From positions 1-64,000 of the IMG/VR virus record IMGVR_UViG_3300047560_000604: DNA of 64,000 bases; one strand, 5' to 3'. The notes under the pieces are model-generated. The model ran no database searches and was not told the origin of the DNA. It worked only from the letters and a program-made list of their open reading frames with translations. The first letter of the stretch is position 1, and every line of letters starts with the position of its first letter. Below are positions 18,247 through 54,794 of the stretch, in pieces. The stretch is from a virus. A program made the position numbers and the translations under genes.

Positions 18247-18464
18247 TTTATGAGAGTCCAGACGGGGGTAAGACAGTTTACTCCCGTCGCCCCGGCGAAA
18301 CGGAGAGAACATTGATTCACGAAAGTACTGAAGTGCGGGCTAGAAACCGATGGGCTAAGTTTGCAAACATCTTACATCTTGCAGAGACAGAACCTGCGCT
18401 TGATGATGCAGTCAAGAAAGTGGAAATGCTTTACGCATTGTTAAAGGATAATGATGGAAGTTAA
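18243..18464 (+). CDS. Hypothetical protein
   Basis: TTG start overlapping the upstream stop; IYESPDGGKTVYSR. Confidence 0.7.
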   Translation: MIYESPDGGKTVYSRRPGETERTLIHESTEVRARNRWAKFANILHLAETEPALDDAVKKVEMLYALLKDNDGS

Positions 18465-18711
18465 TCCTTCAGTTTGGTATGGTACACGTGAGTTGCCCGA
18501 TGTGCCACCTCACTTTATAAAAACATCAGCACCAGTTACAAGTGAATCACTATTTTGGGTAAAGTCAAAATTAGTAGGTAGATATTCTGTGTACATCGTG
18601 CCTATCACCCTATCATCTAGGACACTCACTGATTCGGGCAATACAGTTATGTATTTTGAGAATCCAGGTGAAGCAATGATGTATGAATTGCGTTGGTCCG
18701 GAAGTAAATAA
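18451..18711 (+). CDS. Dispersed LRW-family small protein
   Basis: Ends FENPGEAMMYELRWSGSK. Confidence 0.7.
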   Translation: MMEVNPSVWYGTRELPDVPPHFIKTSAPVTSESLFWVKSKLVGRYSVYIVPITLSSRTLTDSGNTVMYFENPGEAMMYELRWSGSK

Positions 18712-21110: not shown

Positions 21111-21346
21111 TGCAGTACTTGGTTAAAAAAATCAGGATGAGCGATGTGGAAGATCCTGATCTGATGGTGTCGCAACCTATATATGAGTGGCAACAAACAG
21201 ATGCTGGTAAGTATGTAATGGCTAACAGCAAGCCTGAACCCATGTGGACTAGGACCGTTGACGCAACGACATATGGGTACTTGTATTTGATACATGCAGA
21301 GTTTACACCAGAGCAAATAACATATTATAAGTTGAAATTCGAATGA
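21110..21346 (+). CDS. Small hypothetical protein (LRW-like C-terminus)
   Basis: Ends FTPEQITYYKLKFE; coupled at both ends. Confidence 0.7.
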   Translation: MQYLVKKIRMSDVEDPDLMVSQPIYEWQQTDAGKYVMANSKPEPMWTRTVDATTYGYLYLIHAEFTPEQITYYKLKFE

Positions 21347-40709: not shown

Positions 40710-41753
40710 ATGAAAAAAGTGAAACCTACAACAAAAGAACAGTTAATATACTTTTTTATAACCAACGTAAGTTTAGGAACTTACGATAAAAGATTCTTGT
40801 CTAATATAGAATCAATGAGCCTCATTGAAGGAAAACCATTGACCTCTAACCAAGTAGCATTGTTAGATAAGATAATCGCTAGGTATAGTAGACAGTTATC
40901 TAAAATGGAAATCAACGTAGATGAAATGTTGGCACTGCCATGGAACCTACAACCGATTGAAAGTCTACCACAATTCACTGAGGCTCACTTGAATCTCATG
41001 GAGGATGTATTTCTACTACATAGTCCATATAAGAAAGAATTCATCGATGAATTCAAACAAGCTGACATTGATGGTAAGTGGAACAAAGAAGACCGGTGCT
41101 GGACATTCCCTGCGTGTACTCATTCATTAAGTATAGCTACCTTTCTGATTGAAAAACATTATAACAAAGTAAACTACTGCGACCAAACTAAAGAGTTTAT
41201 AAATACAGCTAGTGAGTACAAGGATATGAAATATTGGAATCCTACTTACAAGTATATCAACGGTTCATTCTATGTTGTAGCAACAAATCCATATCTTGAA
41301 TCTGCAATTACAGATTTAGAATTTAACTTAGACCTTTCAGTCTTAGCTAGATTAGTAAGATATGGTGTCACTATTGATGACACAGTATTGATGAAGTTCA
41401 GTGAAACGTATTCGGTTGATGAAATAGCCTTTGCTATAGATCCTAAACCCAAAGTAGAAATAAACGATGATTCTATCATAGACAAGTTACAATCAATTAA
41501 AACAGATTGTGTTGCTTTTATGGAACTCACCGGCAGTTCTAGTAATTTTTTCAAAGGGTTGAAAGAGCAACTAAACGACACTGACATGAAGCAATTAACA
41601 CTATCAACCCGAGAGCCAGTCAATGATGCTTTCGTAGATAGTGAATACCCCGTGCTACTTGTATCTGGCTTTTGGACTAAATCCATGATGGATTCTCGTC
41701 AAGCTGCCAAAGTTATACACGTAGTAAACAGTAAACCAATTTTTATTAAATGA
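40710..41753 (+). CDS. Hypothetical protein upstream of UvsW
   Basis: Intact ORF, ATGA coupled to the helicase. Confidence 0.8.
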   Translation: MKKVKPTTKEQLIYFFITNVSLGTYDKRFLSNIESMSLIEGKPLTSNQVALLDKIIARYSRQLSKMEINVDEMLALPWNLQPIESLPQFTEAHLNLMEDVFLLHSPYKKEFIDEFKQADIDGKWNKEDRCWTFPACTHSLSIATFLIEKHYNKVNYCDQTKEFINTASEYKDMKYWNPTYKYINGSFYVVATNPYLESAITDLEFNLDLSVLARLVRYGVTIDDTVLMKFSETYSVDEIAFAIDPKPKVEINDDSIIDKLQSIKTDCVAFMELTGSSSNFFKGLKEQLNDTDMKQLTLSTREPVNDAFVDSEYPVLLVSGFWTKSMMDSRQAAKVIHVVNSKPIFIK

Positions 41754-43237
41754 AACAATGCAAAATAATCGTTAAGGATGAAGTTAACGTAAAAATAGAA
41801 GGACTCGAACTAACAGAGCGCAAGGCTCTGATGAAGAAGTTTGAGTATGAGAAGCCGGGTGCGAGGTATTTACCAAGTGTCCGGCTTGGTCGTTGGAATG
41901 GCAAGATTAGCTATTTCAGTCTAGGTGGTTCTAGTTTTGTAAACTTATTACCTGACATCCTTCCCTTCATTGACCAAGCAGGTTATGATATTGAGCTAGA
42001 AGACTTGCGTGAGTATTCTACTACGTTCAACTTCACCGAGTTCAAAGAAGATAGCTTCGCCGCGCACGTGTGGCCTGACAAGCATCCAATGGCAGGTTCT
42101 CCTGTTATGATTCGTGACTATCAGATTGAGATTATCAACAACTTCTTAAAGAATCCGCAATCACTACAAGAAGTTGCGACTGGTGCTGGCAAAACAATTA
42201 TGACTGCCGCACTGAGTTATTCAGTAGAGGGTTATGGACGTTCAATCGTTATCGTTCCTAACAAGGACTTGGTTACACAAACAGAACGTGATTACATTAA
42301 CGTGGGATTAGACGTAGGTGTATACTTCGGTGACAGAAAAGACTACGGTAAGACTCACACAATTTGTACGTGGCAAAGTCTTGGCAACATGTTAAAGAAA
42401 ACTAAAGCAGATGAAGCAGAGATTACAATAGGTGAATTCATTGAAGGTGTATGCTGTGTTATCGTTGACGAAGTTCACATGGCTAAAGCTGACGTATTGA
42501 AAGAACTATTGACAGGGGTAATGTCACACATTCCAATTCGTTGGGGATTGACTGGAACTATCCCTAAGAGTGAGTTTGATTATAAAGCTATCATGGTCTC
42601 ACTTGGACCTGTTATCGGTAAACTATCAGCAAAAGAATTACAAGACAAAGGCGTGTTATCAAACTGTCACGTTAACATCGTACAATTACAAGATAAAGTA
42701 GAGTTCAGTAACTACCAAACTGAATTGAAATATCTTCTTGAAGATGACAAACGATTGACTTCTATTTGTCAGTTACTTGAGAAGATTAAAGAGACTGGCA
42801 ACACATTAATTCTTGTTGATAGAGTGTCAGCAGGTAGAGCAATTCAAACAAGATTGAGTGAGGCATTCACTAAAGAAAGACTTGATTACGAAGTTAGTTT
42901 TGTGTCAGGTGAGACAGGATTAACTGAGAGGAAAGAACAGTATGATGAAGTGGCTACAGCTACTAACAAGGTTATTGTGGCGACTTATGGTGTGGCCGCT
43001 GTGGGTATTAATATTCCTAGGATTTTCAATCTGGTTCTTGTGGAACCCGGAAAGAGCTTTGTTCGAGTTATCCAATCTATTGGACGAGGTATTAGAAAGG
43101 CAGAAGATAAGGACTTTGTACAAATCTGGGATATTACGAGTTCCTGTAAATTCGCCAAACGACATTTGACACAACGTAAGACGTTCTACAAAGAGGCGTC
43201 GTACCCGTTTTCGATTGAAAAACTAGACTATAAGTGA
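41750..43237 (+). CDS. uvsW: SF2 DNA helicase UvsW-like
   Basis: IRDYQ, VATGAGKT, IVDEVH, GLTGT, QSIGRGIR. Confidence 0.93.
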   Translation: MKQCKIIVKDEVNVKIEGLELTERKALMKKFEYEKPGARYLPSVRLGRWNGKISYFSLGGSSFVNLLPDILPFIDQAGYDIELEDLREYSTTFNFTEFKEDSFAAHVWPDKHPMAGSPVMIRDYQIEIINNFLKNPQSLQEVATGAGKTIMTAALSYSVEGYGRSIVIVPNKDLVTQTERDYINVGLDVGVYFGDRKDYGKTHTICTWQSLGNMLKKTKADEAEITIGEFIEGVCCVIVDEVHMAKADVLKELLTGVMSHIPIRWGLTGTIPKSEFDYKAIMVSLGPVIGKLSAKELQDKGVLSNCHVNIVQLQDKVEFSNYQTELKYLLEDDKRLTSICQLLEKIKETGNTLILVDRVSAGRAIQTRLSEAFTKERLDYEVSFVSGETGLTERKEQYDEVATATNKVIVATYGVAAVGINIPRIFNLVLVEPGKSFVRVIQSIGRGIRKAEDKDFVQIWDITSSCKFAKRHLTQRKTFYKEASYPFSIEKLDYK

Positions 43238-43243
43238 TACAAT
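43215..43243 (+). promoter_or_regulatory. sigma70-like promoter; ATG 6 nt after the -10
   Basis: TTGAAA-17-TACAAT-6-ATG(43250). Confidence 0.65.
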
Positions 43244-43249
43244 ATAATT

Positions 43250-43750
43250 ATGCGAATTTTAACTTTAGACAACCAATACTATAACTTAGAGACACTACCA
43301 GAAGAAGTAGATGACTTACGCTTTGCTATCTTAGATAACAGCACACCAACAAACGTAGACTATCATTACATTCCATTAATCTTCTTAGAATCGTTTAACT
43401 CACCTGCTCTCGTATTGAGAGTGGGAGACAAGACTATAAAGATGCCGGTTGATTGGCAAATATTAATAGGCGAACCTGAAATGGGTGACTTAGAAACGTT
43501 ACCATTAACAAGTATCAATGATCGGGGATTCAAAGCATTTGAGTTTAATCCATTGTCAGCATTCAGACCCAGCTTTCAAGACATTGAGATTGTAGACATA
43601 TATCACGATGTAACATGGTATGCACCTCGATTGAAGAACGGACAGTTCTTATGTGTACCGATAGATGATACAGATAAACCCCGATGTGTTTACTTTGTAA
43701 AAGAGATTAGTAGAAACTGTGAAATCGTAGACTATCAACAGGCTTGGTAA
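43250..43750 (+). CDS. Hypothetical protein
   Basis: Intact ORF; TAATG coupling. Confidence 0.8.
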   Translation: MRILTLDNQYYNLETLPEEVDDLRFAILDNSTPTNVDYHYIPLIFLESFNSPALVLRVGDKTIKMPVDWQILIGEPEMGDLETLPLTSINDRGFKAFEFNPLSAFRPSFQDIEIVDIYHDVTWYAPRLKNGQFLCVPIDDTDKPRCVYFVKEISRNCEIVDYQQAW

Positions 43751-44346
43751 TGGCAACTAAAAAACCCGCAATAGCAAAAGACGAAAAGTTTGAAAAGCAA
43801 GACCTTGATTTGTTTGAGGCACTAGGTGCATTAGACAAGAAGGACTATGGATATTATTCTAGGCTCACGGAAGACCAGAAGAAGAAATTCTCTCACTATA
43901 TGATGACTACTTGGATGAGTATGGTAGATTCACGCAACAGTGAATTGCAAGGATACTATATTCGTGCCACTGATATGGCAGCGAACAAGCACATGTTCAA
44001 CGAAAACGTTCAACGTCATCCTGAATTGCAATGGTTGATGCTATGTGCTATTAGTCCTGGCATGGGTGCTCAACGTAGAAAGTGGATCCCGCATCTATCA
44101 CCTAAAGTTGCGATGTTAAAAGAAACACCCAAGGCTAAAGACATAAAAGAATATTACAGCAAAATCTATCCTGGAACTAAAGACAGTGACTTGACTATGA
44201 TTAGTGATGTGTTTGTTAAAGAACACAAGAAGAAAGTATATCTAGCAAGTGTATACCCACTGATGAAACAGACTGACATTGAACTACTAGCACAAATGGT
44301 TACTGATGAAGATATTGAACAATATGAGCGAGACCGAGGAAACTAA
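43750..44346 (+). CDS. Putative clamp-loader small subunit (gp62-like)
   Basis: DLFEAL.ALDKKD..Y..L..KKF..YM..WMS..N..HP.LQW.ML pattern. Confidence 0.55.
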   Translation: MATKKPAIAKDEKFEKQDLDLFEALGALDKKDYGYYSRLTEDQKKKFSHYMMTTWMSMVDSRNSELQGYYIRATDMAANKHMFNENVQRHPELQWLMLCAISPGMGAQRRKWIPHLSPKVAMLKETPKAKDIKEYYSKIYPGTKDSDLTMISDVFVKEHKKKVYLASVYPLMKQTDIELLAQMVTDEDIEQYERDRGN

Positions 44347-45022
44347 ACCAATATATGGTTGTGAATTTTGTAATCGTAAATTTGCAAGAGAACGCACATT
44401 AGTTTCCCACATCTGTGAAACAAAATCTAGATGGCTTAGTAGAGATACCGCAGGCAATCGTTTGGGATATCAATGCTTCTTGCAATTCTATAAAAAGAAT
44501 ACAACAGCAAAGAAACCCAAGCCATACGAGGAGTATATTCGTAGCCCGTACTATACTGCGTTTGCTAAGTTCGGTAGTTACTGTGTTGATGTGCAAGTTA
44601 TCAACGTAAGTAGATATGTTGATTGGCTATTGAAAGATAGTATCAAGCTAGATAATTGGGCAACTGACGCAAACTACACAAAGTTCTTGTGTGAGTATCT
44701 TAGAATAGAAGACCCATTTGATGCTATTTACCGAAGCGTTGAGAAGTGTGTTGAATTGGGTGAGGCCCAAAATATATTACCAAATGATGTGTTGAGATTT
44801 GGGAATGTGAACAAAATCTGTTACGCCATAACAACGGGCAAAATCTCCCCCTGGATGTTGTATTGTAGCGACAGTGGTACCCAATTTCTAGCTAACTTAA
44901 ATGAAGATCATGTTAGAATAGTCATAGATTATATAAATCCACAACAATGGGCATTGAAGTTTAACCGTGACGAAAATCTTAAACAACAAATCAGAGACAC
45001 GCTCCAAGCCGCAGGGTACTAA
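44324..45022 (+). CDS. Hypothetical protein with N-terminal C2H2-like zinc finger
   Basis: YGCEFCNRKF.RE.TL..HICE. Confidence 0.8.
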   Translation: MSETEETKPIYGCEFCNRKFARERTLVSHICETKSRWLSRDTAGNRLGYQCFLQFYKKNTTAKKPKPYEEYIRSPYYTAFAKFGSYCVDVQVINVSRYVDWLLKDSIKLDNWATDANYTKFLCEYLRIEDPFDAIYRSVEKCVELGEAQNILPNDVLRFGNVNKICYAITTGKISPWMLYCSDSGTQFLANLNEDHVRIVIDYINPQQWALKFNRDENLKQQIRDTLQAAGY

Positions 45023-45206
45023 AGTAACACTTGATTGGCGGCACGGGCGTGATGGGACAGAATCATGGAATGAGATTTGTGCTTGGGTAATTGAGCAATA
45101 TGGTATGCCAGGCACACTTTACACATGGCACCCAACGGAAGACTACATGCAGTTCTACTTTCATAGAGAAAAGGATGCTATTCATTTTAGTTTGAGGTGG
45201 TTATGA
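44967..45206 (+). CDS. LRW-array protein
   Basis: Ends FHREKDAIHFSLRWL; start uncertain. Confidence 0.7.
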   Translation: MTKILNNKSETRSKPQGTKVTLDWRHGRDGTESWNEICAWVIEQYGMPGTLYTWHPTEDYMQFYFHREKDAIHFSLRWL

Positions 45207-45466
45207 AAGAACCCTATTTTGTTAGAGAAAGATACATTGTTAATGTATGTAGAGGTCTATGGATAGAGCCTTGGCCCAAATACTTTGATAACTTTTGGAA
45301 TCATTGTCTTGCTATTGGTCATGAAAATGAATGGCAAACTATCACTGTTGCTAACCATGAACTTAAACCATTAGGTGGTAAACTGATTATAACTAAAACA
45401 CAAGGGTGGTACTTACGTTGGGATGATGAAAAAACTCACGCATTTTTTATATTAAAGTGGTCATGA
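45203..45466 (+). CDS. LRW-array protein
   Basis: Ends DDEKTHAFFILKWS. Confidence 0.75.
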   Translation: MKEPYFVRERYIVNVCRGLWIEPWPKYFDNFWNHCLAIGHENEWQTITVANHELKPLGGKLIITKTQGWYLRWDDEKTHAFFILKWS

Positions 45467-45645
45467 ATCAACATAGTATCGCTATCGAAAGATGGACTTG
45501 GAAACATAGAAATGAAGTGAGAATGTGGCTAGTTGAGAACTTCGGTGTTCATGGTGGTCGCTGGTTTGAAGATCCTGACTACGGATTAGATAATCTAGTT
45601 ATGGATGAAGATGTTTATATGATGTATAGGTTGAGGTGGGAATAA
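45463..45645 (+). CDS. LRW-array protein
   Basis: Ends MDEDVYMMYRLRWE. Confidence 0.75.
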   Translation: MNQHSIAIERWTWKHRNEVRMWLVENFGVHGGRWFEDPDYGLDNLVMDEDVYMMYRLRWE

Positions 45646-45818
45646 TGGATCTTACTGAAGAACAATGTGACAAAATTTTTACTCCAAGTGAGGCAGAGCA
45701 AACTTGGCTAGTGTTACAAGGTAAATGCCCGCACAACGGCGGCTGGCGTCATGTGGGTCACGGTCATAACGATGACTGCTATGAATGTAAATTATGCAGC
45801 GAATCAAGATGGTGGTAA
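45645..45818 (+). CDS. Small zinc-finger-like protein
   Basis: CPHN..H.GH..CYECKLC. Confidence 0.65.
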   Translation: MDLTEEQCDKIFTPSEAEQTWLVLQGKCPHNGGWRHVGHGHNDDCYECKLCSESRWW

Positions 45819-45819
45819 C

Positions 45820-46065
45820 ATGAGACTGAAAGCGTTCAGAGGCAATCTGATGGCGCACAAACATCGCGGTAATCGCTGGACAGTGAGAGTTGCTGGCAAG
45901 ATTGATGATGAAGTGTGGTGTTGGTTAAGTGATAATTATGGCGAAGAAGATTTTGAAAATGGTCCCTGGGCTAGAATGTATGCTTCATGGGACTATTATA
46001 GTCACGCTACTTATGATGTAACAGACCCTAAAATTATTACTATGTTGAAATTGAGGTTTGAATGA
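45820..46065 (+). CDS. LRW-array protein
   Basis: Ends TDPKIITMLKLRFE. Confidence 0.7.
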   Translation: MRLKAFRGNLMAHKHRGNRWTVRVAGKIDDEVWCWLSDNYGEEDFENGPWARMYASWDYYSHATYDVTDPKIITMLKLRFE

Positions 46066-46379
46066 TTACAAGTGTATGGTACTCTACGGACGATCATAGA
46101 CCTTCTGTAGAGGGTTATTACCTAGCATACAAATTGCCTACTTTAGGTGATGATGAAGAAGGCTACGGGGTATACTACTGGGATGAGTTTTATAGAGACT
46201 GGAGAGAATCGAGTTCCCCTCAGTCACACGGCGTTAGAGTTAGCTTATGGTCAGAATTGCCACCACACGACCCTCGTGATAATACTGTACATCCACCCTC
46301 AGTAGCAGAAATTGACGCTTGGAATAATGTGATGAATGCCATTGACAAATTTAACATGGTGAAAGAGTTGAGTAGATAA
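46062..46379 (+). CDS. Small hypothetical protein
   Basis: WYSTDDHRP..GYYL..V..W..LP; coupled. Confidence 0.7.
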   Translation: MITSVWYSTDDHRPSVEGYYLAYKLPTLGDDEEGYGVYYWDEFYRDWRESSSPQSHGVRVSLWSELPPHDPRDNTVHPPSVAEIDAWNNVMNAIDKFNMVKELSR

Positions 46380-46723
46380 TGTTAGAAGTTGTGAACAAGA
46401 TTCTCGGAATGTTTGGTAAAGACATTCAAGCGAAAGCTACCCGAAAGATAGCAAACCCCGGTGACCAATTTAGCCCATTTAAGATAGTAGATGGGTATAT
46501 TGGGTTTAAACCTTTCCTAATTATTGAGAATCAAAACGAAACTATGTTATACTCACATGACTGTGTAGCAATTGATACCCGGTCAGAAGTTGAATTATGG
46601 ATACTTGACCAACCAGTTCACATGTGGAAGTATGCAGAAGAATGTGATGATTGTCACCCTGCAATGACAAGATTTTTAGTAAACAAAGAATTATTAACTT
46701 GGATGGAGTTAAAATGGAATTGA
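46379..46723 (+). CDS. LRW-array protein
   Basis: Ends NKELLTWMELKWN. Confidence 0.7.
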   Translation: MLEVVNKILGMFGKDIQAKATRKIANPGDQFSPFKIVDGYIGFKPFLIIENQNETMLYSHDCVAIDTRSEVELWILDQPVHMWKYAEECDDCHPAMTRFLVNKELLTWMELKWN

Positions 46724-47151
46724 ATCACTTATCAGATAATGAATTGATTGAGCATATCATTAGATATGATAATGACCCTGTGAGGGTTCGTCTTGCCACT
46801 CACATGCAACGAGTTAGTGGTGCTATCATTGATGACTTGCTTGATGCTGGTATGGATGACACATGGTGTAATTTTGATAGTGTTGTGAATGGTGCTCAAT
46901 ATCACCCCGGTCGATATATTACGCACCTTGAGAATGAAGTTGAATATCTTAACGACAAATTATCCGACGCCCTCAAAGAAATCAAAGAACTTCAAGCACG
47001 AACTATCATGGACTTTATCGGTGAACTTAAACAAGAGATTAAGACTGTAGAATGGTGCAGAGATGAGGCTTACAGAGATAGAGACAAAGCACAAGAGAAT
47101 GAAAAGTTGATGAAAAGTAAACTTAGCATGTGGGCTGAGTTGAACAGATGA
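46714..47151 (+). CDS. Coiled-coil hypothetical protein
   Basis: GGAG SD; heptad C-terminal half. Confidence 0.75.
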   Translation: MELNHLSDNELIEHIIRYDNDPVRVRLATHMQRVSGAIIDDLLDAGMDDTWCNFDSVVNGAQYHPGRYITHLENEVEYLNDKLSDALKEIKELQARTIMDFIGELKQEIKTVEWCRDEAYRDRDKAQENEKLMKSKLSMWAELNR

Positions 47152-47372
47152 ACGATAAAGTGAAAAGTTTTATGGAACAATGGTTCGGTGAAGAAGAACT
47201 CAATGACAAGTACTGGCCCTATCAGTTTACTATCAATGACTGGCAACGTATTCGTGAAACTGAACGATTTTGCTATAACAGTTTTAAAAGTGGTAACTGG
47301 CGCAATCGTGGAAGATACTTTGGATTCAAACGTAAGCAAGATTACGAATGGTTCTTATTAAGGTGGCTATGA
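47148..47372 (+). CDS. LRW-array protein
   Basis: Ends FKRKQDYEWFLLRWL. Confidence 0.8.
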   Translation: MNDKVKSFMEQWFGEEELNDKYWPYQFTINDWQRIRETERFCYNSFKSGNWRNRGRYFGFKRKQDYEWFLLRWL

Positions 47373-47626
47373 GAGTAGAGTTTAATCAAGGCGTACCCGA
47401 AGGATGTAAGCAATGGCTTTGGGATAATGTCGGACCCGGCAATATAACATTGACTAGACCTGGTATCATTGACACAAAAGATAGTCCCGAGTATGCTTGG
47501 TTCTTTGAGCGTATTAAGAAACCAACAACCCCGGAATCGTTTTATGACGACCCATTTTATTTTGTCCCTACTATCACAGTGAAAGATGAAAAGATGGCAA
47601 CAATATTTGCTTTGAGGTGGCTATGA
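47369..47626 (+). CDS. LRW-array protein
   Basis: Ends VKDEKMATIFALRWL. Confidence 0.8.
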   Translation: MRVEFNQGVPEGCKQWLWDNVGPGNITLTRPGIIDTKDSPEYAWFFERIKKPTTPESFYDDPFYFVPTITVKDEKMATIFALRWL

Positions 47627-47871
47627 TGGATTTAGAACTTGTAAAAAAGATTGTGGCTAGACAAGGGCAGAATGAGTTTCTCAAAAAACCTATCGTATTG
47701 CCACCCGAAGCAAAAGTTGTCACTGGTCAAATGAAGGAAGATGCTTACTTACATTTCCTAGAAACTAACTGCGGGGTAGAGATACATTTGTCAGAATATC
47801 ATAACGAGATAGTTGGGTACAATGTCATTGATGAAAAGAAATTTTCTTGGTTTGTATTGAAATGGTCATGA
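47623..47871 (+). CDS. LRW-array protein
   Basis: Ends IDEKKFSWFVLKWS. Confidence 0.8.
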   Translation: MMDLELVKKIVARQGQNEFLKKPIVLPPEAKVVTGQMKEDAYLHFLETNCGVEIHLSEYHNEIVGYNVIDEKKFSWFVLKWS

Positions 47872-47882
47872 AGGGACAATAA

Positions 47883-48221
47883 ATGGCACAGCCAATCATC
47901 ATGCCAATAATTAGACAGGTGACACCCACTTTACTAGCTAATAGTATCTTAGGTGTACAACCCATGACGGGCCCGGTGGGTGAAATCTTTACTATGAAGG
48001 CTAACTACGCTCCGCTCAAATATAAATTTAGCCGTGCTAAATGGTACTATGCAGACCATCGTTATGAAGATTATGATGCTATCATAGCATGGTGTACTGA
48101 ACAGTTTGGTCCGCGACCCAAACGCCCTGATGCATGGACACGATGGGTTGATGAACACATTGACCGTATTAAATTCCGTGACGAAAAAGATTATGCTTGG
48201 TTTGTGTTGAGATGGTCATGA
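47883..48221 (+). CDS. LRW-array protein with N-terminal gp23 (Gol-region)-like peptide
   Basis: IIMPIIRQVTPTLLANSILGVQPMTGPVGEIFTMKANY; ends FRDEKDYAWFVLRWS. Confidence 0.8.
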   Translation: MAQPIIMPIIRQVTPTLLANSILGVQPMTGPVGEIFTMKANYAPLKYKFSRAKWYYADHRYEDYDAIIAWCTEQFGPRPKRPDAWTRWVDEHIDRIKFRDEKDYAWFVLRWS

Positions 48222-48496
48222 CAGATACAGTCAAACTAGAGTGGACAGATATTTGTCGCCACGAGCATAGGTGTGAGAGCGGGAAAATGTTCCATCACAC
48301 TGTGCCCAGCTATAGTGTATACGTTCAAGCATACCAATGGTTGCGGGTAGAGCGTGGGTATAAGTTTATATGTGCTGCAGCCGAGATATCAGAGGAAGAA
48401 TACCCGGAAAGGGGTGGTAAAATTCACACCGGCAGATTCATATTCAAGTTCTTATGTGAGCAAGAGTATATGTGGTTTAAGTTGAGGTGGAGTTAA
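48218..48496 (+). CDS. LRW-array protein
   Basis: Ends FLCEQEYMWFKLRWS. Confidence 0.8.
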   Translation: MTDTVKLEWTDICRHEHRCESGKMFHHTVPSYSVYVQAYQWLRVERGYKFICAAAEISEEEYPERGGKIHTGRFIFKFLCEQEYMWFKLRWS

Positions 48497-48774
48497 TGGA
48501 ATATTTTTACGGTGGCGGCGGCAACAATCGCCCTGTCTTTTTATACAGATTTAAAGTCAACCCTTGTACTACTGAAATGTATAAGTGGGCACAAGCATAT
48601 CCTGAGAAAGGTCCCTTCAGTCGGTTTCATGTTGAATGGCGAGGGGCTTATAGCAAAATGGATAGACCCTTAGAATATGATGTAATTCAGTTTGAACATA
48701 GTGAAGCCGCTAAAGTATTCAGAATCGCATTTGCGGGTGAGTATGAAGAAACCACTTTCAAAGAATACAGATGA
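48496..48774 (+). CDS. LRW-array protein (divergent)
   Basis: FEHSEAAKVFRIAF. Confidence 0.7.
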   Translation: MEYFYGGGGNNRPVFLYRFKVNPCTTEMYKWAQAYPEKGPFSRFHVEWRGAYSKMDRPLEYDVIQFEHSEAAKVFRIAFAGEYEETTFKEYR

Positions 48775-49001
48775 ACAAGTACGATTACTGGAGATTGTTA
48801 AGAATTCTTAAAACAGAATATGATAAACAGTATACTGGTTACTATGAACCGACATATACTGGTTTCACAGATTCGTTTGACAAGTACATACAAGAACAGT
48901 ACGGAATAAAAATGTGGATTCATAATGACGGTAATATTGATGGTACTTTTGAAATTCTAGACGAAGGTAAGTATGCATGGTGCCTACTTAAACATAAATG
49001 A
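48771..49001 (+). CDS. LRW-array protein
   Basis: Ends LDEGKYAWCLLKHK. Confidence 0.75.
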   Translation: MNKYDYWRLLRILKTEYDKQYTGYYEPTYTGFTDSFDKYIQEQYGIKMWIHNDGNIDGTFEILDEGKYAWCLLKHK

Positions 49002-49438
49002 AAATACTTAGACGAATCAAAGCCTACGTTAGACTCAAAAAGAGCAGAAATTTTCTAAAGAAACATAAGTGTTTATCTTATAAACAATACAAGCTCCAGT
49101 ATGACGATGATATAATTAAGTACGCTACTTTGGTTAGCCACTTCTATCACGGTTACCCATATACATGTTACTTTGAGAAAGTACCCGACGGTGAGTTGTT
49201 GATGCCTTGGTTAGAGAAAATGGACGATTGGTGTCATACTAATTGTTCGGGTAAAGTCAGACATGATATCCATAGAGTTATTCGGGAAAAGGGCTTGATT
49301 CACAATCAATATGATGATACAATGATATGGAGTGATATAGAAGATTTTTCCATGAATGATATCGGTGGACATGACTTGTTATTCTATGCGTTTAAAAGTG
49401 AAAAGGATTATGCGTGGTTCAAACTAAGATGGCAGTAA
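48998..49438 (+). CDS. LRW-array protein
   Basis: Ends FKSEKDYAWFKLRWQ. Confidence 0.8.
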   Translation: MKILRRIKAYVRLKKSRNFLKKHKCLSYKQYKLQYDDDIIKYATLVSHFYHGYPYTCYFEKVPDGELLMPWLEKMDDWCHTNCSGKVRHDIHRVIREKGLIHNQYDDTMIWSDIEDFSMNDIGGHDLLFYAFKSEKDYAWFKLRWQ

Positions 49439-49692
49439 AAACCAAAGAAGAAGAAATGATGGATATCTTGGCTGAAGAAATTCGCAAAGAAATTGATGAG
49501 GGTATCATATCAAATATATTAGTTGAGACTGGATGGACACCTGTACAGTTTTATTTTAAGAACGGTGAGCAAGCAGTTGATGTACAGATTTGGTTAGCCG
49601 GAACATGTACTGATGACTATCGTAGATTGGGCAGTGACTACTTGTTTAAAAGTAAGCAAGATGCTGAATGGTTTATTCTACGATGGCTATGA
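49429..49692 (+). CDS. LRW-array protein with N-terminal gp23-like helix
   Basis: EEEMMDILAEEIRKEIDEGIISNIL; ends FKSKQDAEWFILRWL. Confidence 0.8.
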   Translation: MAVKTKEEEMMDILAEEIRKEIDEGIISNILVETGWTPVQFYFKNGEQAVDVQIWLAGTCTDDYRRLGSDYLFKSKQDAEWFILRWL

Positions 49693-49946
49693 CATTCAAA
49701 ATTGATGAGGGCAGAGTGTATGGAGCACGATACTATACCGCAAAACCTCATTGTGATGATTGGGATGAAGCAGTCCCATGGTACATACTACAAGACTGGG
49801 TAGAAGAAATGTTCGGAGAAAGTAAGGGTTCTATATGGTTTGATAAGGGAATACCTCAACCAGGTGAAAGATGGTATGTGAACAATGCGAAATTTTGGTT
49901 TCGCAACAAAGAAGATTTAGAATGGTTTTTATTAAGATGGCAATGA
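49689..49946 (+). CDS. LRW-array protein
   Basis: Ends FRNKEDLEWFLLRWQ. Confidence 0.8.
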   Translation: MTFKIDEGRVYGARYYTAKPHCDDWDEAVPWYILQDWVEEMFGESKGSIWFDKGIPQPGERWYVNNAKFWFRNKEDLEWFLLRWQ

Positions 49947-50188
49947 AAATAGAAGCAACAAAAGAGTTAGTCCAAATGATTGAACGTTCCGCACGTGAGT
50001 GGAAGAGGATCAAACCAATCCTAGAAGAAAAACATCGTCATTATGATACCTACGCTGAAGATATGTTCGGGATCAATGTCGATTTTGGTGTGTTTGATAA
50101 CAAGGTAGCTATCATTGGTGCCCAAATAATAGATGATGAAAAGTACGTCAACTTTCTATTAAGGTACGGAGACATGCCAAATGAGTAA
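49943..50188 (+). CDS. LRW-array protein
   Basis: IDDEKYVNFLLRYG. Confidence 0.75.
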   Translation: MKIEATKELVQMIERSAREWKRIKPILEEKHRHYDTYAEDMFGINVDFGVFDNKVAIIGAQIIDDEKYVNFLLRYGDMPNE

Positions 50189-50465
50189 TATGCACAAAGC
50201 AGTAAAAGAAATTAAAGAATTAGGCTCCTTCAGATATTGGGATGAACACTACTACGGCAGTAAACGAACTATTACTACTATTACTTGGAAAGGCAGGGGC
50301 GAAGTTGACTCTGATGAAATACAAGATTGGTGTTTAACCTCATTTGGTAAGAGCGGCTATCAAGAAGAAATCGAAGATAGTCTTTGGGTTGATAATTGTC
50401 AGTACGGTGAGCTTATGTTATGTAGACCCGAACTACTCACAGCGTTTTTATTAAGATGGACATGA
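50181..50465 (+). CDS. LRW-array protein
   Basis: Ends CRPELLTAFLLRWT. Confidence 0.75.
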   Translation: MSNMHKAVKEIKELGSFRYWDEHYYGSKRTITTITWKGRGEVDSDEIQDWCLTSFGKSGYQEEIEDSLWVDNCQYGELMLCRPELLTAFLLRWT

Positions 50466-50728
50466 AATTTGACATAAACAGAAGCATAGGCTGGAACATA
50501 GATAGAAGAATTGTGAAGCGTACTGACATTATCACAGACGGCGCAGATTGCTATCCATGGACTGAAACGTTTGTCATTTGGCCCAGACGAAGTATTTCGG
50601 GTGCTCCGTTGTTCTGGACTAAAGCATACAAGCGTAGAGTTTGGGTAGTATGGGGTACGGGGTTTCATATGGAACCAGAAGTTCAATATGCTACAGCATT
50701 TGATTTGTTGACACATGGTAACGATTAA
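50462..50728 (+). CDS. Trp-rich small hypothetical protein
   Basis: ATGA coupled. Confidence 0.7.
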   Translation: MKFDINRSIGWNIDRRIVKRTDIITDGADCYPWTETFVIWPRRSISGAPLFWTKAYKRRVWVVWGTGFHMEPEVQYATAFDLLTHGND

Positions 50729-50966
50729 ACTTAAACGAGGGCTAGAGCCACAAGCAGAACAATGGCTTGCTAAGAATGTGGGGCCAAGAATGCACTACCT
50801 CCATAATTCAATCGGTGGAGAAGGCTGGATCGCTAAGAAAGGTACCGAACCATTTGAGTATACCGATCAACAAGGTAATACGAGACAAATGACTGTTATA
50901 GTATGGAACCTCACATTCCAAGAAGATAAGTATGCTACTTGGTTTAGGATAATGTTTCCAGAATGA
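50715..50966 (+). CDS. LRW-array protein (divergent)
   Basis: FQEDKYATWFRIMF. Confidence 0.7.
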   Translation: MVTIKLKRGLEPQAEQWLAKNVGPRMHYLHNSIGGEGWIAKKGTEPFEYTDQQGNTRQMTVIVWNLTFQEDKYATWFRIMFPE

Positions 50967-51181
50967 TAGAGGTTAAACTCATAGATTTGATGCCCAATGA
51001 GATTATGGACATCGTAAAAGAACTAAGAAAGAACGGGTGTGTACAGGGTTTGGACTTTGATTTTGAGTATCATAAGCCCAAATATGATGACTTCGGCCAT
51101 GAACCAGTGTATAATAGACATACAATATTCAAGTTTTACAAAGAAGAATTAGCGACTTGGTTCGCATTGAGGTATCAATAG
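50963..51181 (+). CDS. LRW-array protein
   Basis: Ends FYKEELATWFALRYQ (TAG stop). Confidence 0.8.
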   Translation: MIEVKLIDLMPNEIMDIVKELRKNGCVQGLDFDFEYHKPKYDDFGHEPVYNRHTIFKFYKEELATWFALRYQ

Positions 51182-51465
51182 TGGCAATATCAGGTATAGG
51201 TAATAGCACAGGCACATTCATGCCCTACACAGGGACTCGTCCGCCTGAGGATCAAAGTAAATATGAAATTCATCACATGGGTAAAATCTTTCATCAGATT
51301 GATTTGAAATTTAGTAAAATTGATCCAGTAGACTATATTAAATGGTGCCGTAGAAATCTAGGTGATCGCGGTTCTACATGGGAGTTCTGGATGGCAGGTG
51401 GAATGTTGTATATTGAAGTCTGGGGCGAGAAGGCAAAGTTTACTTATGAAATGTGGAAGAACTAA
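51181..51465 (+). CDS. LRW-array protein (divergent)
   Basis: GTG start overlapping TAG; WGEKAKFTYEMWKN. Confidence 0.65.
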   Translation: MAISGIGNSTGTFMPYTGTRPPEDQSKYEIHHMGKIFHQIDLKFSKIDPVDYIKWCRRNLGDRGSTWEFWMAGGMLYIEVWGEKAKFTYEMWKN

Positions 51466-51758
51466 TGAGTGAGCTAGTAGCAATCAATGGAATTGTACAA
51501 GCACGTAGCCAATACATGGTATCCGGGGATAACATCGTGTTTCACATCGCACCGCCGTGCGGCTCAAGAATCTGTATTCTGTCAGAAGATGGTAGGTCTG
51601 ACTATGAAGGCACCGGCGACACGTATGTGTACCCAGGGGCTTCTAATGAAAGAACAAAATACAAACAGTTTATGGAAGATGTTTATGACAAACGTTATAA
51701 CCCAACAGTCAAAGACGCATTAGAGAAATTAAAAGTAGTAATGGAATTAGTACGATGA
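51465..51758 (+). CDS. Small hypothetical protein
   Basis: TAATG coupling. Confidence 0.7.
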   Translation: MSELVAINGIVQARSQYMVSGDNIVFHIAPPCGSRICILSEDGRSDYEGTGDTYVYPGASNERTKYKQFMEDVYDKRYNPTVKDALEKLKVVMELVR

Positions 51759-51955
51759 GTGCCGAGAATACATGGCGTGTAGTTGCAGGACTTAAACCCA
51801 TCCAATCATTTCGTTGCCGCTTTGGTTGGCATCGCTGGACTAGTTATGAAGTTGTAGAGCGACATGAATTCTCCATGCCATACGCCAAGTGTCATTGTGC
51901 AGACTGTGGATTACCTAGAATAGAACAACCCTACTCAAGCAAGAAAGAAAAGTAA
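51755..51955 (+). CDS. Small Cys/His zinc-finger-like protein
   Basis: CRFGWHRW..C.C..C; paralog of 40391. Confidence 0.7.
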   Translation: MSAENTWRVVAGLKPIQSFRCRFGWHRWTSYEVVERHEFSMPYAKCHCADCGLPRIEQPYSSKKEK

Positions 51956-52200
51956 TGGCTAATGCTTCACGCACTTGGCAAGAAAATCTAAAACAGTGGC
52001 AAAATTCAGATTTACCGGGTCTTTCAAATAGTCTCAATGAAATTGATATGCTCGTATTAGTACATGGTAAGATGCAAGAGTTATACCCGGGCAATTATTC
52101 ACTTGATTGGAAGTTTGATTCAGTAACCGGGGCTTTCAAGTTGTATCCGAAATTTAACACACCAGAAGACGAGACTTGGTTCATATTAAAATATAGTTAA
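51955..52200 (+). CDS. LRW-array protein
   Basis: Ends FNTPEDETWFILKYS. Confidence 0.75.
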   Translation: MANASRTWQENLKQWQNSDLPGLSNSLNEIDMLVLVHGKMQELYPGNYSLDWKFDSVTGAFKLYPKFNTPEDETWFILKYS

Positions 52201-52257
52201 GGAAACAAACGACATTATGATTGACGAATGATAAATACTTTATCAGGAGTTAAAACA

Positions 52258-52875
52258 ATGGATTACAGGAAACTTTGGGAATCGCACAACGGACCTATAC
52301 CAAAAGATAAAGATGGTAGAAGTTATGAAATACATCACATTGATGGTAACCATCAAAATAATGTCATTGAAAATTTGAAATTAGTAACTATTCAAGAACA
52401 CTATGATGTACATTATTCGCAAGGTGACTACGGGGCATGTCTGGCTATCATTATGAGAATGAATGTTCCGGTTGAGGTGTCAAAGAAATTACAAAGCAAA
52501 CTAAGTAAAGCAGTTGCCGCAAAACGCATTGCCGAAGGCACCCATAACTTTTCATCCGAACTTAGTAAGCGAGTTCAGAAAGAAAGATTAGATAATGGAA
52601 CACACAACTTTCAAGGTGAACAAGGTAGCCTTAATGCTGTACAACGCAATAATAAACTAGTAGAATTAGGAAAGCATCCGTGGGCAGGTGAGTTAGGAAA
52701 GATTCATAATAAGAAAGTAGCTACTGAAAGAATTGCTAATGGTACGCATAACTTTCAAGGAGAGATGAACCCTAATAAAAACATGCCTAAGGTAACATGC
52801 CCACATTGTGGTAAAGTAGGTGGTCGTAATTCAATGAAACGATACCATTTTGATAATTGTAAGAATAAGGAATAA
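52258..52875 (+). CDS. HNH homing endonuclease with GTHNF repeats and C-terminal Zn ribbon
   Basis: YEIHHIDGNHQNN..ENL..VT..EH; R(I/L)xxGTHNF three times; CPHCGK..HFDNC; AGGAG SD. Confidence 0.88.
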   Translation: MDYRKLWESHNGPIPKDKDGRSYEIHHIDGNHQNNVIENLKLVTIQEHYDVHYSQGDYGACLAIIMRMNVPVEVSKKLQSKLSKAVAAKRIAEGTHNFSSELSKRVQKERLDNGTHNFQGEQGSLNAVQRNNKLVELGKHPWAGELGKIHNKKVATERIANGTHNFQGEMNPNKNMPKVTCPHCGKVGGRNSMKRYHFDNCKNKE

Positions 52876-52877
52876 GT

Positions 52878-53438
52878 ATGGCGGCGGACATTATGATAGA
52901 TATTGAGAGTTTAGACACAACACCTGATTGTGCTATTCTTACGATTGGTGCAGTAAGATTTGATCCTAAGGGTTCAGGTGTTGTTGAAAAACTTGAACTT
53001 AGACCTACATTAGAAGACCAAACAGAAAAATATAATAGGAGAATTAGTGATGATACACTTCGTTGGTGGTCCGAGCAGTCCCCAGAAGCCCTCGAGGAAG
53101 CGATGGGCGACAGAGGCCGTGTCCCGTTTGCTGAATGCATGGAGACGCTATATAAGTTTTGTTGGAATCGCCGTGCTGTTTGGAGTAACGGTGCTCCATT
53201 CGACTTGGTCGTTATGGAGCACGCCTGGCGACAAACAAGTGATAAACCAAATCCTATCCCTTGGCCGTTCTGGACAATGAGAGATACTAGAACTCTCTTT
53301 GAAATAGCAGGTGTTAAACTAAGTGATGGCGGCCATTCTACGAGTCACAAGGCTGTGGAAGATGCTGAACGACAAGCCATTGTCGTACAAAAAGCATATA
53401 TGAAACTAATCAAAGCAGAATTGGTAGCACCACGATGA
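52878..53438 (+). CDS. DEDDh 3'-5' exonuclease
   Basis: IMIDIESL, WSNG..FD, RDTRT, HKAVEDA. Confidence 0.88.
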   Translation: MAADIMIDIESLDTTPDCAILTIGAVRFDPKGSGVVEKLELRPTLEDQTEKYNRRISDDTLRWWSEQSPEALEEAMGDRGRVPFAECMETLYKFCWNRRAVWSNGAPFDLVVMEHAWRQTSDKPNPIPWPFWTMRDTRTLFEIAGVKLSDGGHSTSHKAVEDAERQAIVVQKAYMKLIKAELVAPR

Positions 53439-53857
53439 GTATTTTTTCTGATCTGTTTCACACACAGGAGAACGATATCATGCACACAAAGATGTGTAGC
53501 ATGTGCAATCGAACTTTGCCCGCGAACGGTGCTCATTTTGCAAAAGAAGGTAGCAAGGGATATTTGCGATATGAGTGCAGGGATTGTGCTAAGAAACACA
53601 GCAAACTATTAGCAAAGATTAAAAAGTCAGCACCTAAAGTTGCAGTTGACCACAAATGTCCTGTGTGTTTAAGAGGTGCAGCCGATCTCAAAACTTATGG
53701 AAAAAACAAAAAATCAGTTTGGGTCGCTGACCATGACCATGCTACTGAAAAGTTTCGAGGGTGGCTGTGTCACAAGTGTAACTTAGGTCTAGGTAATTTA
53801 GGTGATGATGCAGAACGATGTATTAGAGCCGCGGAGTATTTAAAAAATGAAGTTTAA
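53435..53857 (+). CDS. Recombination endonuclease VII-like protein
   Basis: CPVC..VADHDH.T.KFRGWLCHKCN.GLG..D. Confidence 0.85.
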   Translation: MSIFSDLFHTQENDIMHTKMCSMCNRTLPANGAHFAKEGSKGYLRYECRDCAKKHSKLLAKIKKSAPKVAVDHKCPVCLRGAADLKTYGKNKKSVWVADHDHATEKFRGWLCHKCNLGLGNLGDDAERCIRAAEYLKNEV

Positions 53858-54443
53858 TTCAGATATTGATATTGACTTTGGTAACAGAGAAAATATACTA
53901 CAGCATATCAAGCATACGCCGGCGGCGATGCGTAATGTAACTCCCATACGAAAACATGCTACTGGAGTATATGTAACTGATGTTCCATATGATGCTGTAA
54001 ATGATATGGCTAATATTGATTACACTGTAGCAGAAGATAGAGGGTATGTTAAGCTAGACTTTTTGAACGTACACATTTATGAGCATGTTCGTGATGAGGA
54101 TCACTTAAAAAGTCTAATGAAAGAACCTGATTGGGCTAAGTTGAAAGACAAAGATTTTGTTGAAAAGTTAATTCACTTGTCTAATCATTACAACAGCCTT
54201 CAGCGTATGCCTGAGCCGGTAGATAGTATTCCTCGTCTTGCTATGTTTCTTGCGATAATCCGCCCAGCGAAGAAACACCTCATTGGTCTCCCATGGAAGA
54301 AAGTCTCTGAATCTGTGTGGGAAAAAGAATCTGATGGTTATCATTTCAAGAAAAGTCATAGTGTCGCCTACGCAAATCTTGTTGTTGTTCATATGAATCT
54401 GTTGAAAGAGGGTCTAGGGCATACGCTTGACGAGAGTAATTGA
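53847..54443 (+). CDS. Minimal DNA polymerase III alpha (DnaE)-like catalytic core, 198 aa
   Basis: SDIDIDF, KHATGVYV, VKLDFLN, RLAMFLAIIRP, YHFKKSHSVAY. Confidence 0.75.
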   Translation: MKFNSDIDIDFGNRENILQHIKHTPAAMRNVTPIRKHATGVYVTDVPYDAVNDMANIDYTVAEDRGYVKLDFLNVHIYEHVRDEDHLKSLMKEPDWAKLKDKDFVEKLIHLSNHYNSLQRMPEPVDSIPRLAMFLAIIRPAKKHLIGLPWKKVSESVWEKESDGYHFKKSHSVAYANLVVVHMNLLKEGLGHTLDESN

Positions 54444-54794
54444 TTTGCGTTTACTCTTACGCTTATTGAGTTCTAACATAGAGCATATGGGCCCATGCAT
54501 GATTGTTAGACTCTTGTTATTGAATGTTCTAAGATAGGGTTTGAACACTACCCAATCTTCTTTTAAGAACATATTGATGGGAACTAAGCGATTTGATTCC
54601 CACCACCACGTGTCTCCCAATTCTAGGAACTTTTCTCTAAGTTCAGGGTGTTGGATTGACCCGTAGTCGTATATAGTGGTGACAATATCATCCCTGTTCT
54701 GCACGATTCCCACATAGTCTTGACCAGCATAGGAGCATACAGTAATAAAGGGATGATTCTCGGTCAATTTTTTGAAGAATTCGTTGTGAAACAT
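54414..54794 (-). CDS. Hypothetical protein
   Basis: GTG start after minus-strand TAAATA (54813-54818); convergent overlap. Confidence 0.75.
   Translation of the reverse strand: MFHNEFFKKLTENHPFITVCSYAGQDYVGIVQNRDDIVTTIYDYGSIQHPELREKFLELGDTWWWESNRLVPINMFLKEDWVVFKPYLRTFNNKSLTIMHGPICSMLELNKRKSKRKSITLVKRMP

Follow-up and report, generated by a model that had tools for sequence, protein, structure and literature searches.

What kind of genetic element is a chain of 27 small genes that run into one another on a single strand and that mostly end in the same few amino acids? The question is raised by positions 44967-52200 of the window, by which we mean the whole stretch of DNA analysed here, the first 64 kb (64,000 nucleotides, nt) of a 133,466-nt viral contig in IMG/VR (record IMGVR_UViG_3300047560_000604; CheckV completeness about 38%). 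We consider it likely that this locus is a hyperplastic, self-coupling cassette array of old paralogs, which is reordered at dual-coded gene tails and encodes diversified accessory binders. The architecture of the array, comprising the protein family, the coupling tail and the shuffling of cassettes, is well supported.

An earlier model-made reading of this DNA, here called the original prediction, had described 27 chained small open reading frames (ORFs) on the plus strand, and these are present, with sizes of 57-146 amino acids. Nearly all junctions between them are overlaps of 1-14 nt; there are gaps of 1, 1 and 11 nt, plus one of 27 nt ahead of an HNH endonuclease gene, and the first gene, m01, overlaps the 3′ end of the preceding gene (g00b) by 56 nt. 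The C-terminal pattern occurs beyond chance, with 17 plus-strand occurrences within 45.4-52.2 kb of the 133-kb contig; outside the array, the whole contig holds three loose matches on the plus strand and two on the other strand.

Membership was assessed with an independent profile made from 546 ORFs of other contigs only, to avoid circularity. It retrieves 17 array ORFs with E values between 1e-22 and 2e-4; m02 and m19 follow at about 2-4e-3. Profile-profile comparison (hhalign) supports m19 (96%) and, across only some 20 columns at the C-terminus, m02 (92%) and m27 (88%); it adds x24 (51181-51465; 81%) as a probable divergent member, so that the predicted 18 clear and three divergent members come near to the count obtained here. 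Between 19 and 21 of the 27 genes are shown to be old paralogs of one virus-only family that has no name. Two further candidates, x14 and x21, are unsupported by hhalign (13% and 1%). Dispersed copies had also been proposed elsewhere in the window: these are weak. One, at 18445-18711, comes close to significance, at E 1.4e-3 over its last 20 residues, whereas the ORF at 21068-21346 is not significant; of the weaker two, 6454-6768 reaches 9e-3 with the window's own profile only, and the ORF at about 7314 has no listed match. For comparison, 79 related loci, picked through orthologs of m12, were fetched from IMG/VR, and 80 loci were compared (numbers with the prefix L denote individual loci). 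The genes of the array are as follows.

44967-45206, plus strand: m01, family member, 79 amino acids; E 7e-19 with the independent profile; best ortholog 83% identical; matches in 37 loci; tail TTG AGG TGG TTA TGA.
45203-45466, plus strand: m02, divergent member, 87 amino acids; E 1.6e-3; hhalign 92% over the C-terminal 22 columns; ortholog 77%.
45463-45645, plus strand: m03, minimal member (bare domain), 60 amino acids; E 1.4e-13; ortholog 75%.
45645-45818, plus strand: x04, Cys-rich ORF outside the family, 57 amino acids; no family match; ortholog in 0 of 80 loci.
45820-46065, plus strand: m05, family member, 81 amino acids; E 3.5e-9; hhalign 98%.
46062-46379, plus strand: x06, cassette outside the family, 105 amino acids; no family match; matches in 26 loci, best 74%.
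46379-46723, plus strand: m07, family member, 114 amino acids; E 3.5e-6; ortholog 68%.
46714-47151, plus strand: x08, cassette outside the family, 145 amino acids; no family match; matches in 33 loci, best 85%.
47148-47372, plus strand: m09, family member, 74 amino acids; E 6e-11.
47369-47626, plus strand: m10, family member, 85 amino acids; E 1e-8; ortholog 93%.
47623-47871, plus strand: m11, family member, 82 amino acids; E 2.4e-6; ortholog 90%.
47868-47882, plus strand: mini-ORF of four codons (ATG AAG GGA CAA TAA, present as predicted) bridging m11 and m12; its ATG overlaps the m11 stop, its TAA adjoins the m12 ATG at 47883, and AAGGGA lies 6 nt before that ATG.
47883-48221, plus strand: m12, core member, 112 amino acids, with an N-terminal segment of major capsid protein; E 1e-22; Pfam Gp23 at E 6e-13 over residues 3-46.
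48218-48496, plus strand: m13, family member, 92 amino acids; E 7e-6.
48496-48774, plus strand: x14, core cassette, 92 amino acids; matches in 36 loci, best 88%.
48771-49001, plus strand: m15, family member, 76 amino acids; E 5.6e-7.
48998-49438, plus strand: m16, family member, 146 amino acids, whose N-terminal extension is the longest; E 2e-8, domain at residues 75-146; best ortholog 35%.
49429-49692, plus strand: m17, family member, 87 amino acids, with a weak capsid-protein-like helix; E 2e-10; start codon within AGA TGG of m16.
49689-49946, plus strand: m18, family member, 85 amino acids; E 6e-14; modelled with AlphaFold (AF2).
49943-50188, plus strand: m19, divergent member, 81 amino acids, tail LRY plus six residues; E 4e-3; hhalign match over 59 columns.
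50190-50465, plus strand: m20, core member, 91 amino acids; E 1.5e-13; orthologs of at least 45% identity in 28 loci.
50462-50728, plus strand: x21, core cassette outside the family, 88 amino acids; in 38 loci, more than any other gene of the locus.
50715-50966, plus strand: m22, core member, 83 amino acids; E 3e-9; in 27 loci.
50963-51181, plus strand: m23, core member, 72 amino acids; E 3.8e-7; in 29 loci.
51181-51465, plus strand: x24, probable divergent member, 94 amino acids; hhalign match over 43 columns; not significant with the hidden Markov model.
51465-51758, plus strand: x25, cassette outside the family, 97 amino acids, with a tail-fibre-like N-terminal piece; phrog_18673 (tail fiber protein) at E 6e-5, residues 4-36 only.
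51755-51955, plus strand: x26, Cys-rich cassette outside the family, 66 amino acids; no family match; matches in 14 loci.
51955-52200, plus strand: m27, last member, 81 amino acids, tail LKY-S; E 1.8e-4; hhalign match over the C-terminal 19 columns; ortholog in 0 of 80 loci.

The two Cys-rich ORFs, x04 and x26, are small and zinc-ribbon-like and lie amid the family cassettes.

What do the members share? The predicted C-terminal module is real, but alignments extend the similarity beyond the last 15 residues to a whole domain of about 60 amino acids. It consists of a strand with a W, a helix ending ...W(C)xxxFG, a second W, and then FxFxxExDxxWFxL(R/K)W at the C-terminus. Most members carry just 0-30 residues beyond it. 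Conserved positions in the alignments are mostly aromatic or hydrophobic, and we read them as probable core residues. AF2 was run on two non-overlapping alignments, one combining m12 with 146 relatives and the other combining m18 with 25 sequences, its own orthologs and close relatives. Structural homology of the members, whose absence had been named beforehand as one thing that would overturn the original prediction, emerges from these models as far as prediction goes, as both contain a common core of strand-helix-strand-strand-helix. In m12, residues 47-112 have a predicted local distance difference test score (pLDDT) of 86-94 and the capsid piece one of about 50-59; for m18 the pLDDT is 86 and the predicted template-modelling score (pTM) 0.77, and an additional N-terminal strand makes a hairpin ahead of helix-strand-strand-helix.

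These models bear directly on the proposal of an effector library, quickly renewed by recombination, in which hypervariable N-terminal payloads are exchanged on an invariant C-terminal docking or fold module. As a description of the family we regard it as unlikely: the homology covers the entire domain, most members have little outside it, the extension of m12 is disordered in the prediction, and the protein as a whole amounts to a single small domain whose core is predicted to be shared, which speaks against a family-wide division into docking module and payload.

The fold itself has generic neighbours. Foldseek found no match in the PDB at E<=1e-3, and a sequence profile search of the PDB returned chance-level matches only. 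Exhaustive structural alignment gave best Z scores of 5.7 (m12) and 5.0 (m18), at which KH, ACT, secretin-N and further small two-layer domains tie; that level is background for that tool. One might nevertheless see in the proteins small nucleic-acid-binding regulators of a KH-, ACT- or RRM-like two-layer alpha/beta type that tune phage or host transcription or translation. The best structural neighbours do include KH, ACT and translation-factor domains (Z 4-5.7), the array lies within a replication module, and there is a parallel in the zinc-ribbon expansion of Bacillus phage G, whose products are proposed DNA binders (Iyer et al., 2021, PMC7824862). We nonetheless find this very improbable, given that Z<6 is chance level for such small folds with this tool, that the members have isoelectric points of 4.5-9.2 with the majority acidic or neutral, and that a conserved basic patch was not seen in the alignments, where the conserved positions are mainly of the aromatic and hydrophobic kind.

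How, then, are the genes held together? The protein tail ...W-F-x-L-R-W-x-stop is written (T)TG AGG TGG NNA TGA. All nine TGG-NNA-TGA junctions counted in the original prediction are exact (at m01, m02, m09, m10, m11, m12, m17, m18 and m20), as are the two 39-nt tail strings that it quoted from 47334 and 49654. The Arg codon of the Leu-Arg-Trp (LRW) tails in the window is AGG in 8 of 13 cases, AGA in 4 of 13 and CGT in 0 of 13, compared with 4% AGG and 44% CGT among the Arg codons of long ORFs in the same genome (binomial P = 7e-9 for the AGG excess). Among 435 unique tails of relatives the bias recurs, AGG accounting for 238 of 323 Arg codons (74%) against a background of 8%. ATGA overlaps are found in 254, and TAATG overlaps in 62, of 396 relatives' tails, and 357 of the 396 end exactly in W plus one residue. 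GAGGTG is a perfect match to the complement of the 3′ end of 16S ribosomal RNA, and 5 nt separate the GAGG core from the next ATG. Codon usage and spacing together show a tail fit to serve at once as the end of the last helix, as a ribosome-binding site and as the start of the next gene.

Similarity of the tails at the DNA level had been taken as a sign of recombination; this holds in part, and in part the similarity stems from the Shine-Dalgarno constraint. A second type of junction, AGA TGG CAG TAA, occurs at 49424-49438 and at L048:5120-5134. There, the next ATG lies inside the Arg-Trp codons, giving a 10-nt overlap, and no obvious Shine-Dalgarno motif is seen upstream.

Is the array a fixed operon or a set of movable parts? 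In about 40 related contigs the locus is opened by the genes g00a and g00b and closed by an exonuclease gene, with 6 to more than 20 genes between. Comparison of array content among these relatives, suggested as a check on the original prediction, yields 55 different gene orders between the fixed flanks. Family ORFs number 1-16 within 10 kb of the anchor in 77 of the 80 loci, always on one strand. Nor is copy number stable across genomes: the family is represented 24 times in a complete 364-kb genome that has terminal repeats (two main arrays plus a single copy on its own), seven times in a 353-kb genome that is 99% complete, and 2-10 times in other large genomes. The claim of an expandable array of one family is borne out by this range, from 2 to 24 copies per genome. 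Each of m12, m09 and m03 has at least seven different right-hand neighbours. A minimal set of m12, m20, x14, m23, x21 and m22 recurs. The most conserved adjacency is x21 followed by m22 (16 orders), and these two may form a functional pair.

The breakpoints fall where the tails are. In L048, m09 runs into m17 via ...AGG TGG GGATGA, and in L004 m12 runs into m02 likewise; a contig of the same freshwater sample also has m09 directly followed by m17 (joint 47366 to 49438). Since the start codon is part of the preceding tail, m17 and m22 differ in their first codons according to the gene that lies before them. When contigs from four public runs were aligned to the region at >=88% identity, seven joints with a defined junction were found in the array or at its edge. 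Both ends lie within 28 nt of a cassette boundary in seven of the seven. Three of these are tail-to-tail joints between paralogs (45188 to 46702, 46704 to 49425 and 48193 to 48482), the last of which, in related contigs, drops m13; a joint from 45648 to 45823 in a related contig drops x04. The tails are the sole direct DNA repeats in the array. Identity is also mosaic, m11 being about 89% identical in four loci whose m12 spans 43-85%, which would fit the exchange of single cassettes. Tail-to-tail chimeras are what recombination between tails would be expected to leave, and they are the specific evidence for it.

Recombination at conserved 3′ ends, as the original prediction proposed, is upheld by these data, with crossover at the junction between TGG and the next ATG and with metagenome contigs that join cassettes at or inside the tail. 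This part of the payload proposal is supported, yet the unit that moves is a whole gene, cut between TGG and ATG, and not an N-terminus.

How old are the cassettes, and how fast do they change? The array genes each have full-length orthologs of 60-93% identity on other contigs, N-termini included (the exceptions being m16, at 35%, and m27 and x04, with none), whereas the best match among their own neighbours has 20-35% identity or covers the tail alone. Within one locus, array genes and flanks are about equally conserved; in L032, for instance, array genes stand at 83, 89, 80 and 76% and flanking genes at 66, 60 and 89%. Because orthologs are so much closer than neighbours, and because conservation resembles that of the flanks, the array does not look like a fast-evolving library, and the payload proposal is contradicted both by the conserved N-termini of orthologs and by a divergence that is no faster than that of flanking genes. 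Judged by these identities, the array genes appear to be long separated and individually maintained, neither fast-evolving nor recently amplified.

Swappable N-termini do exist in one subfamily, that of m12, and not elsewhere. The m12 match to Pfam Gp23 scores 49.3 bits (cut-off 24.4) but is confined to profile positions 5-48 of 376, so that m12 holds a fragment and is no capsid protein itself. The intact major capsid protein of a related 364-kb genome shows 59% identity, over its residues 64-102, to residues 5-43 of m12, and fusions of this type are kept in more than 100 clusters. One complete 364-kb relative carries two capsid-piece fusions, on different subfamilies, as well as an intact capsid gene. 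The capsid-segment fusions are located as follows.

Window 47883-48020, plus strand: N-terminus of m12.
L087:1336-1752, minus strand: capsid-segment fusion.
L088, plus strand: capsid-segment fusion in an ORF of 124 amino acids.

Other orthologs of the m12 type carry instead a P-loop piece (GRQxGKS) and a 20-residue match, around NLCKEIxLP, to the large subunit of ribonucleotide reductase; in four of four genomes the match is to the phage's own large subunit, within a Pfam-confirmed gene. Further relatives combine the reductase piece with YYAPY, which matches the capsid C-terminus. Patchwork extensions of these kinds were recorded in m12-type orthologs at four places.

L033:3821-4306: patchwork extension.
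L025:8946-9458: patchwork extension.
L049:9743-10198: patchwork extension.
L031:9902-10258: patchwork extension.

A capsid origin of the NLCKEI motif, to which one alignment had pointed, was considered and rejected, as the phages' own reductase large subunits match better; Pfam points to the same region, below threshold. For the P-loop piece, none of the helicase or terminase genes of the four genomes gave a match, and Pfam DnaB_C was reached at E 0.05-0.1 only. This subfamily, in which the domain is kept while extensions differ (capsid; P-loop plus reductase; reductase plus capsid C-terminus), speaks in favour of swappable payloads.

Two weaker resemblances were seen in the window. The N-terminal helix of m17 (49429-49530) resembles Pfam Gp23 positions 171-199 (E 1.8e-3; 18.2 bits, below cut-off), and the start of x25 (51465-51575) matches a tail-fibre PHROG at E 6e-5.

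These segments of essential phage proteins may have a purpose as mimics, or they may be debris caught during shuffling. If the former held throughout, the domain would be a stable carrier that shows short copies of the most conserved segments of essential proteins (capsid protein, ribonucleotide reductase, P-loop NTPase) and so ties up or misleads the host factors that recognise the genuine proteins, with the other paralogs as related binders. The retention of the capsid fusion across so many clusters at 59% identity to a relative's capsid protein, its presence twice in one complete genome on different subfamilies, and the match to the phage's own reductase in each of the four genomes would all agree with this, as would the 20- to 90-fold enrichment of capsid, reductase and P-loop motifs in extensions of family ORFs, in loci that were chosen through m12 orthologs. 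On the other side, such pieces occur in just two of the 20 or so members in the window, their detection favours conserved motifs, and other extensions, with a Laminin_G_3 piece and the tail-fibre piece, look like arbitrary gene fragments, as would fit passive capture during recombination. We rate mimicry as the general role of the family as quite unlikely. The same slender chance is given to the idea that the array is a shuffled library of decoys or blockers directed against host sensors of the core phage proteome, in which the coupling tail would let phages trade decoys and the mini-domain would be a display scaffold, in some cassettes, for look-alikes of the capsid N-terminal segment, the active-site loop of ribonucleotide reductase and a P-loop. 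The capsid segment of m12 is one that we take to be equivalent to the Gol region of T4 gp23. The Gol region binds EF-Tu and activates the e14 Lit protease.

How widespread is the family? A profile search of 1.84 billion representative proteins gave 313 clusters at E<=1e-3. This search had been proposed as a check, and it indicates a virus-only family with hundreds of metagenomic viral clusters. Nearly all of the best 150 of the 313 clusters are 44-156 amino acids long with the domain at the extreme C-terminus, and the named clusters among the matches listed are all 'hypothetical protein' but one ('predicted phage tail protein', from JGI). Neither members nor relatives have a match through the domain in Pfam, PHROGs or NCBIfam; the closest approach is m18 to Pfam Phage_g100 (PF23772) at 13.5 bits and E 0.16, against a cut-off of 27 bits, other members having no match to that entry. 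No relative was found in GenBank phages (megablast of the array; tblastn of m18 and of the m12 domain), none was detectable when 185,579 prokaryote species were scanned through their representative genomes, and a search of the ESM Atlas returned unnamed viral clusters only. Among 147 diverse relatives scanned, none was fused to a complete known domain, and a described equivalent of the array was not found in the literature. The statement that this is not a described system agrees with the absence of matches in Pfam, PHROGs, NCBIfam, solved structures and GenBank phages. Three long helicase-associated repeat proteins (P0002, P0033 and P0074) match only the WCxxxFG helix and are not members.

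We return to the likely reading of the locus as a self-coupling array of old, shuffled paralogs, and to how it might work. The array would be transcribed as one polycistronic message along which ribosomes are passed from one gene to the next. Whole cassettes would be deleted, inserted or reordered by recombination between tails, either homologous or based on microhomology, and each new neighbour would stay translated after an exchange. On a common scaffold with differing surfaces (to which the range of isoelectric points would testify) and under purifying selection, each member would probably have a different partner. In the last and weakest step, the products would be accessory factors of host takeover or counter-defence, their complement tuned to the host. 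One scaffold with many binding surfaces would be produced along with the replication genes. A complement that differs between phages is the pattern expected of such accessories, and this is the best reading of it that we can offer.

Several observations weigh against this reading or narrow it. AGG is found in just 8 of the 19 tails in the window, and no recognisable Shine-Dalgarno motif was found after the AGA, AAA, AAG and CGA tails, so that in those cases termination-reinitiation would have to suffice for coupling. The proposed single transcript, like the coupling, is itself inferred from sequence. Seven or eight genes of the array lie outside the LRW-tail family. The structural matches of m12 and m18 (Z 5.7 and 5.0) are generic, and assignment of the array proteins to host takeover or counter-defence is a guess. 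Breakpoints at gene ends are expected under selection for any viable change of gene content, and the contigs that bear the joints are related phages at >=88% identity, not an established single population.

In which genome does the array reside? From 93 to 96% of its sampled words are present in two runs of one freshwater metagenome sample, from which the contig may have been assembled. For the UvsW-like helicase gene (41750-43237) and the gene directly left of the array, the nearest cultured relatives, at 30-54% identity, are those of the jumbo phages Sinorhizobium Phosso, Pseudomonas PA5oct, Agrobacterium Atu_ph07, Salicola SCTP-2 and Yersinia fHe-Yen9. The source is an uncultured freshwater jumbo phage, distant kin of PA5oct and Rak2-type phages. 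The array sits within a run of replication genes on the same strand; upstream, the UvsW-like helicase gene is followed by three conserved genes without assigned function and then by the array, and downstream come an HNH endonuclease, an Rv2179c-like 3′-5′ exonuclease, endonuclease VII and, further on, a DnaB-like helicase. The immediate flanks are these.

43750-44346, plus strand: g00a, conserved left-flank gene; phrog_11758; orthologs of at least 45% identity in 36 of 80 related loci.
44324-45022, plus strand: g00b, conserved left-flank gene, directly after which the array begins; phrog_11058, E 2e-57.
52228-52875, plus strand: HNH homing-type endonuclease gene at the right array edge; Pfam HNH_3, E 1.7e-13; at this place in 3 of 80 related loci.
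52878-53438, plus strand: 3′-5′ exoribonuclease-like gene, conserved right flank; Pfam Rv2179c-like, E 5e-33.

The gene g00a is followed by g00b in 31 of 31 gene orders; g00b anchors the locus in about 37 related contigs and has homologs in the jumbo phages PA5oct, Phosso, SCTP-2 and Yersinia fHe-Yen9. The exoribonuclease-like gene closes the array in about 29 loci (orthologs of 66-89% identity). One related contig joins 51964 to 52890 and so lacks m27 and the HNH gene. The endonuclease VII gene (53435-53857) is at this place in 0 of 80 related loci, and a related contig joins 53400 to 53847 across it. Both the HNH gene and the endonuclease VII gene look like recent insertions. That the two flanks are simply adjacent in PA5oct was ruled out, as the gene after its g00b homolog is not the exonuclease. 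Elsewhere in the window, ARAGORN reports a tmRNA-like gene at 3562-4011 (tag ANDSAYSLAA) and a tRNA with anticodon CUA, of amber suppressor type, at 6078-6154; an Rfam scan of 43000-54500 found no RNA families.

The array matters because it shows how a phage can maintain many small accessory genes in modular form. In it, one stretch of 15-20 nt would end a protein, bind the ribosome, start the next gene and act as a recombination joint, and we know of no described case of a shuffling signal inside a conserved protein motif. The LRW-tail family represents a sizeable portion of viral dark matter with a confidently predicted fold, found in uncultured giant phages only and absent from the curated libraries searched. 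If its products do act in host takeover or counter-defence, the natural presence/absence matrix could become a map that matches cassettes to hosts or defence systems.

How does the array compare with systems already known? With the Gol region of T4 gp23 the likeness concerns m12 only, which presumably holds a copy of the same highly conserved capsid segment; in m12, the segment stands alone, fused to a mini-domain. Integron arrays likewise consist of cassettes without expression signals of their own, held at one fixed site and read from upstream, with variable content and order. In the LRW array, by contrast, the overlapping genes leave no room for attC sites, and exchange would take place within coding tails, through homology or microhomology; no integrase domain was found among the flank genes scanned, the contig beyond the flanks lying outside that scan. 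With the translational coupling of polycistronic operons the array shares ATGA and TAATG overlaps and a Shine-Dalgarno motif inside the preceding coding sequence. What differs is that this motif is fixed in a protein motif of some 20 paralogs per array and hundreds of relatives, and that it is portable with the cassette.

Bacillus phage G has about 35 copies of a zinc ribbon, which are proposed to be transcription factors or DNA binders (Iyer et al., 2021, PMC7824862). In both cases tens of copies of one small domain are present in a giant phage and their function is guessed only. The LRW domain, unlike the zinc ribbon, has a core without zinc ligands, and its copies are old, with orthologs in many phages, a fixed locus and a coupling tail.

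A close parallel in organisation may be drawn with the PeSL (promoter-early stem-loop) cassettes of the hyperplastic regions of T4-type phages (Arbiol et al., 2010, PMC2839356, Comeau et al., 2014, PMC4122927). Those regions hold small non-essential genes between conserved blocks, and a short conserved expression signal at the cassette borders drives modular shuffling by recombination. A short border signal and shuffling by recombination are common to both systems. The PeSL border is intergenic and combines a sigma-70-type early promoter with a terminator stem-loop, whereas the border in the LRW array lies in coding sequence, without intergenic DNA. In the array, terminator-like sites are not enriched (4 versus 5.9 +/- 3.0 expected), and promoter-like sites number 49 versus 37.6 +/- 6.1 expected. 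The LRW border would act on translation, not on transcription, and its cassettes are mostly paralogs of one family.

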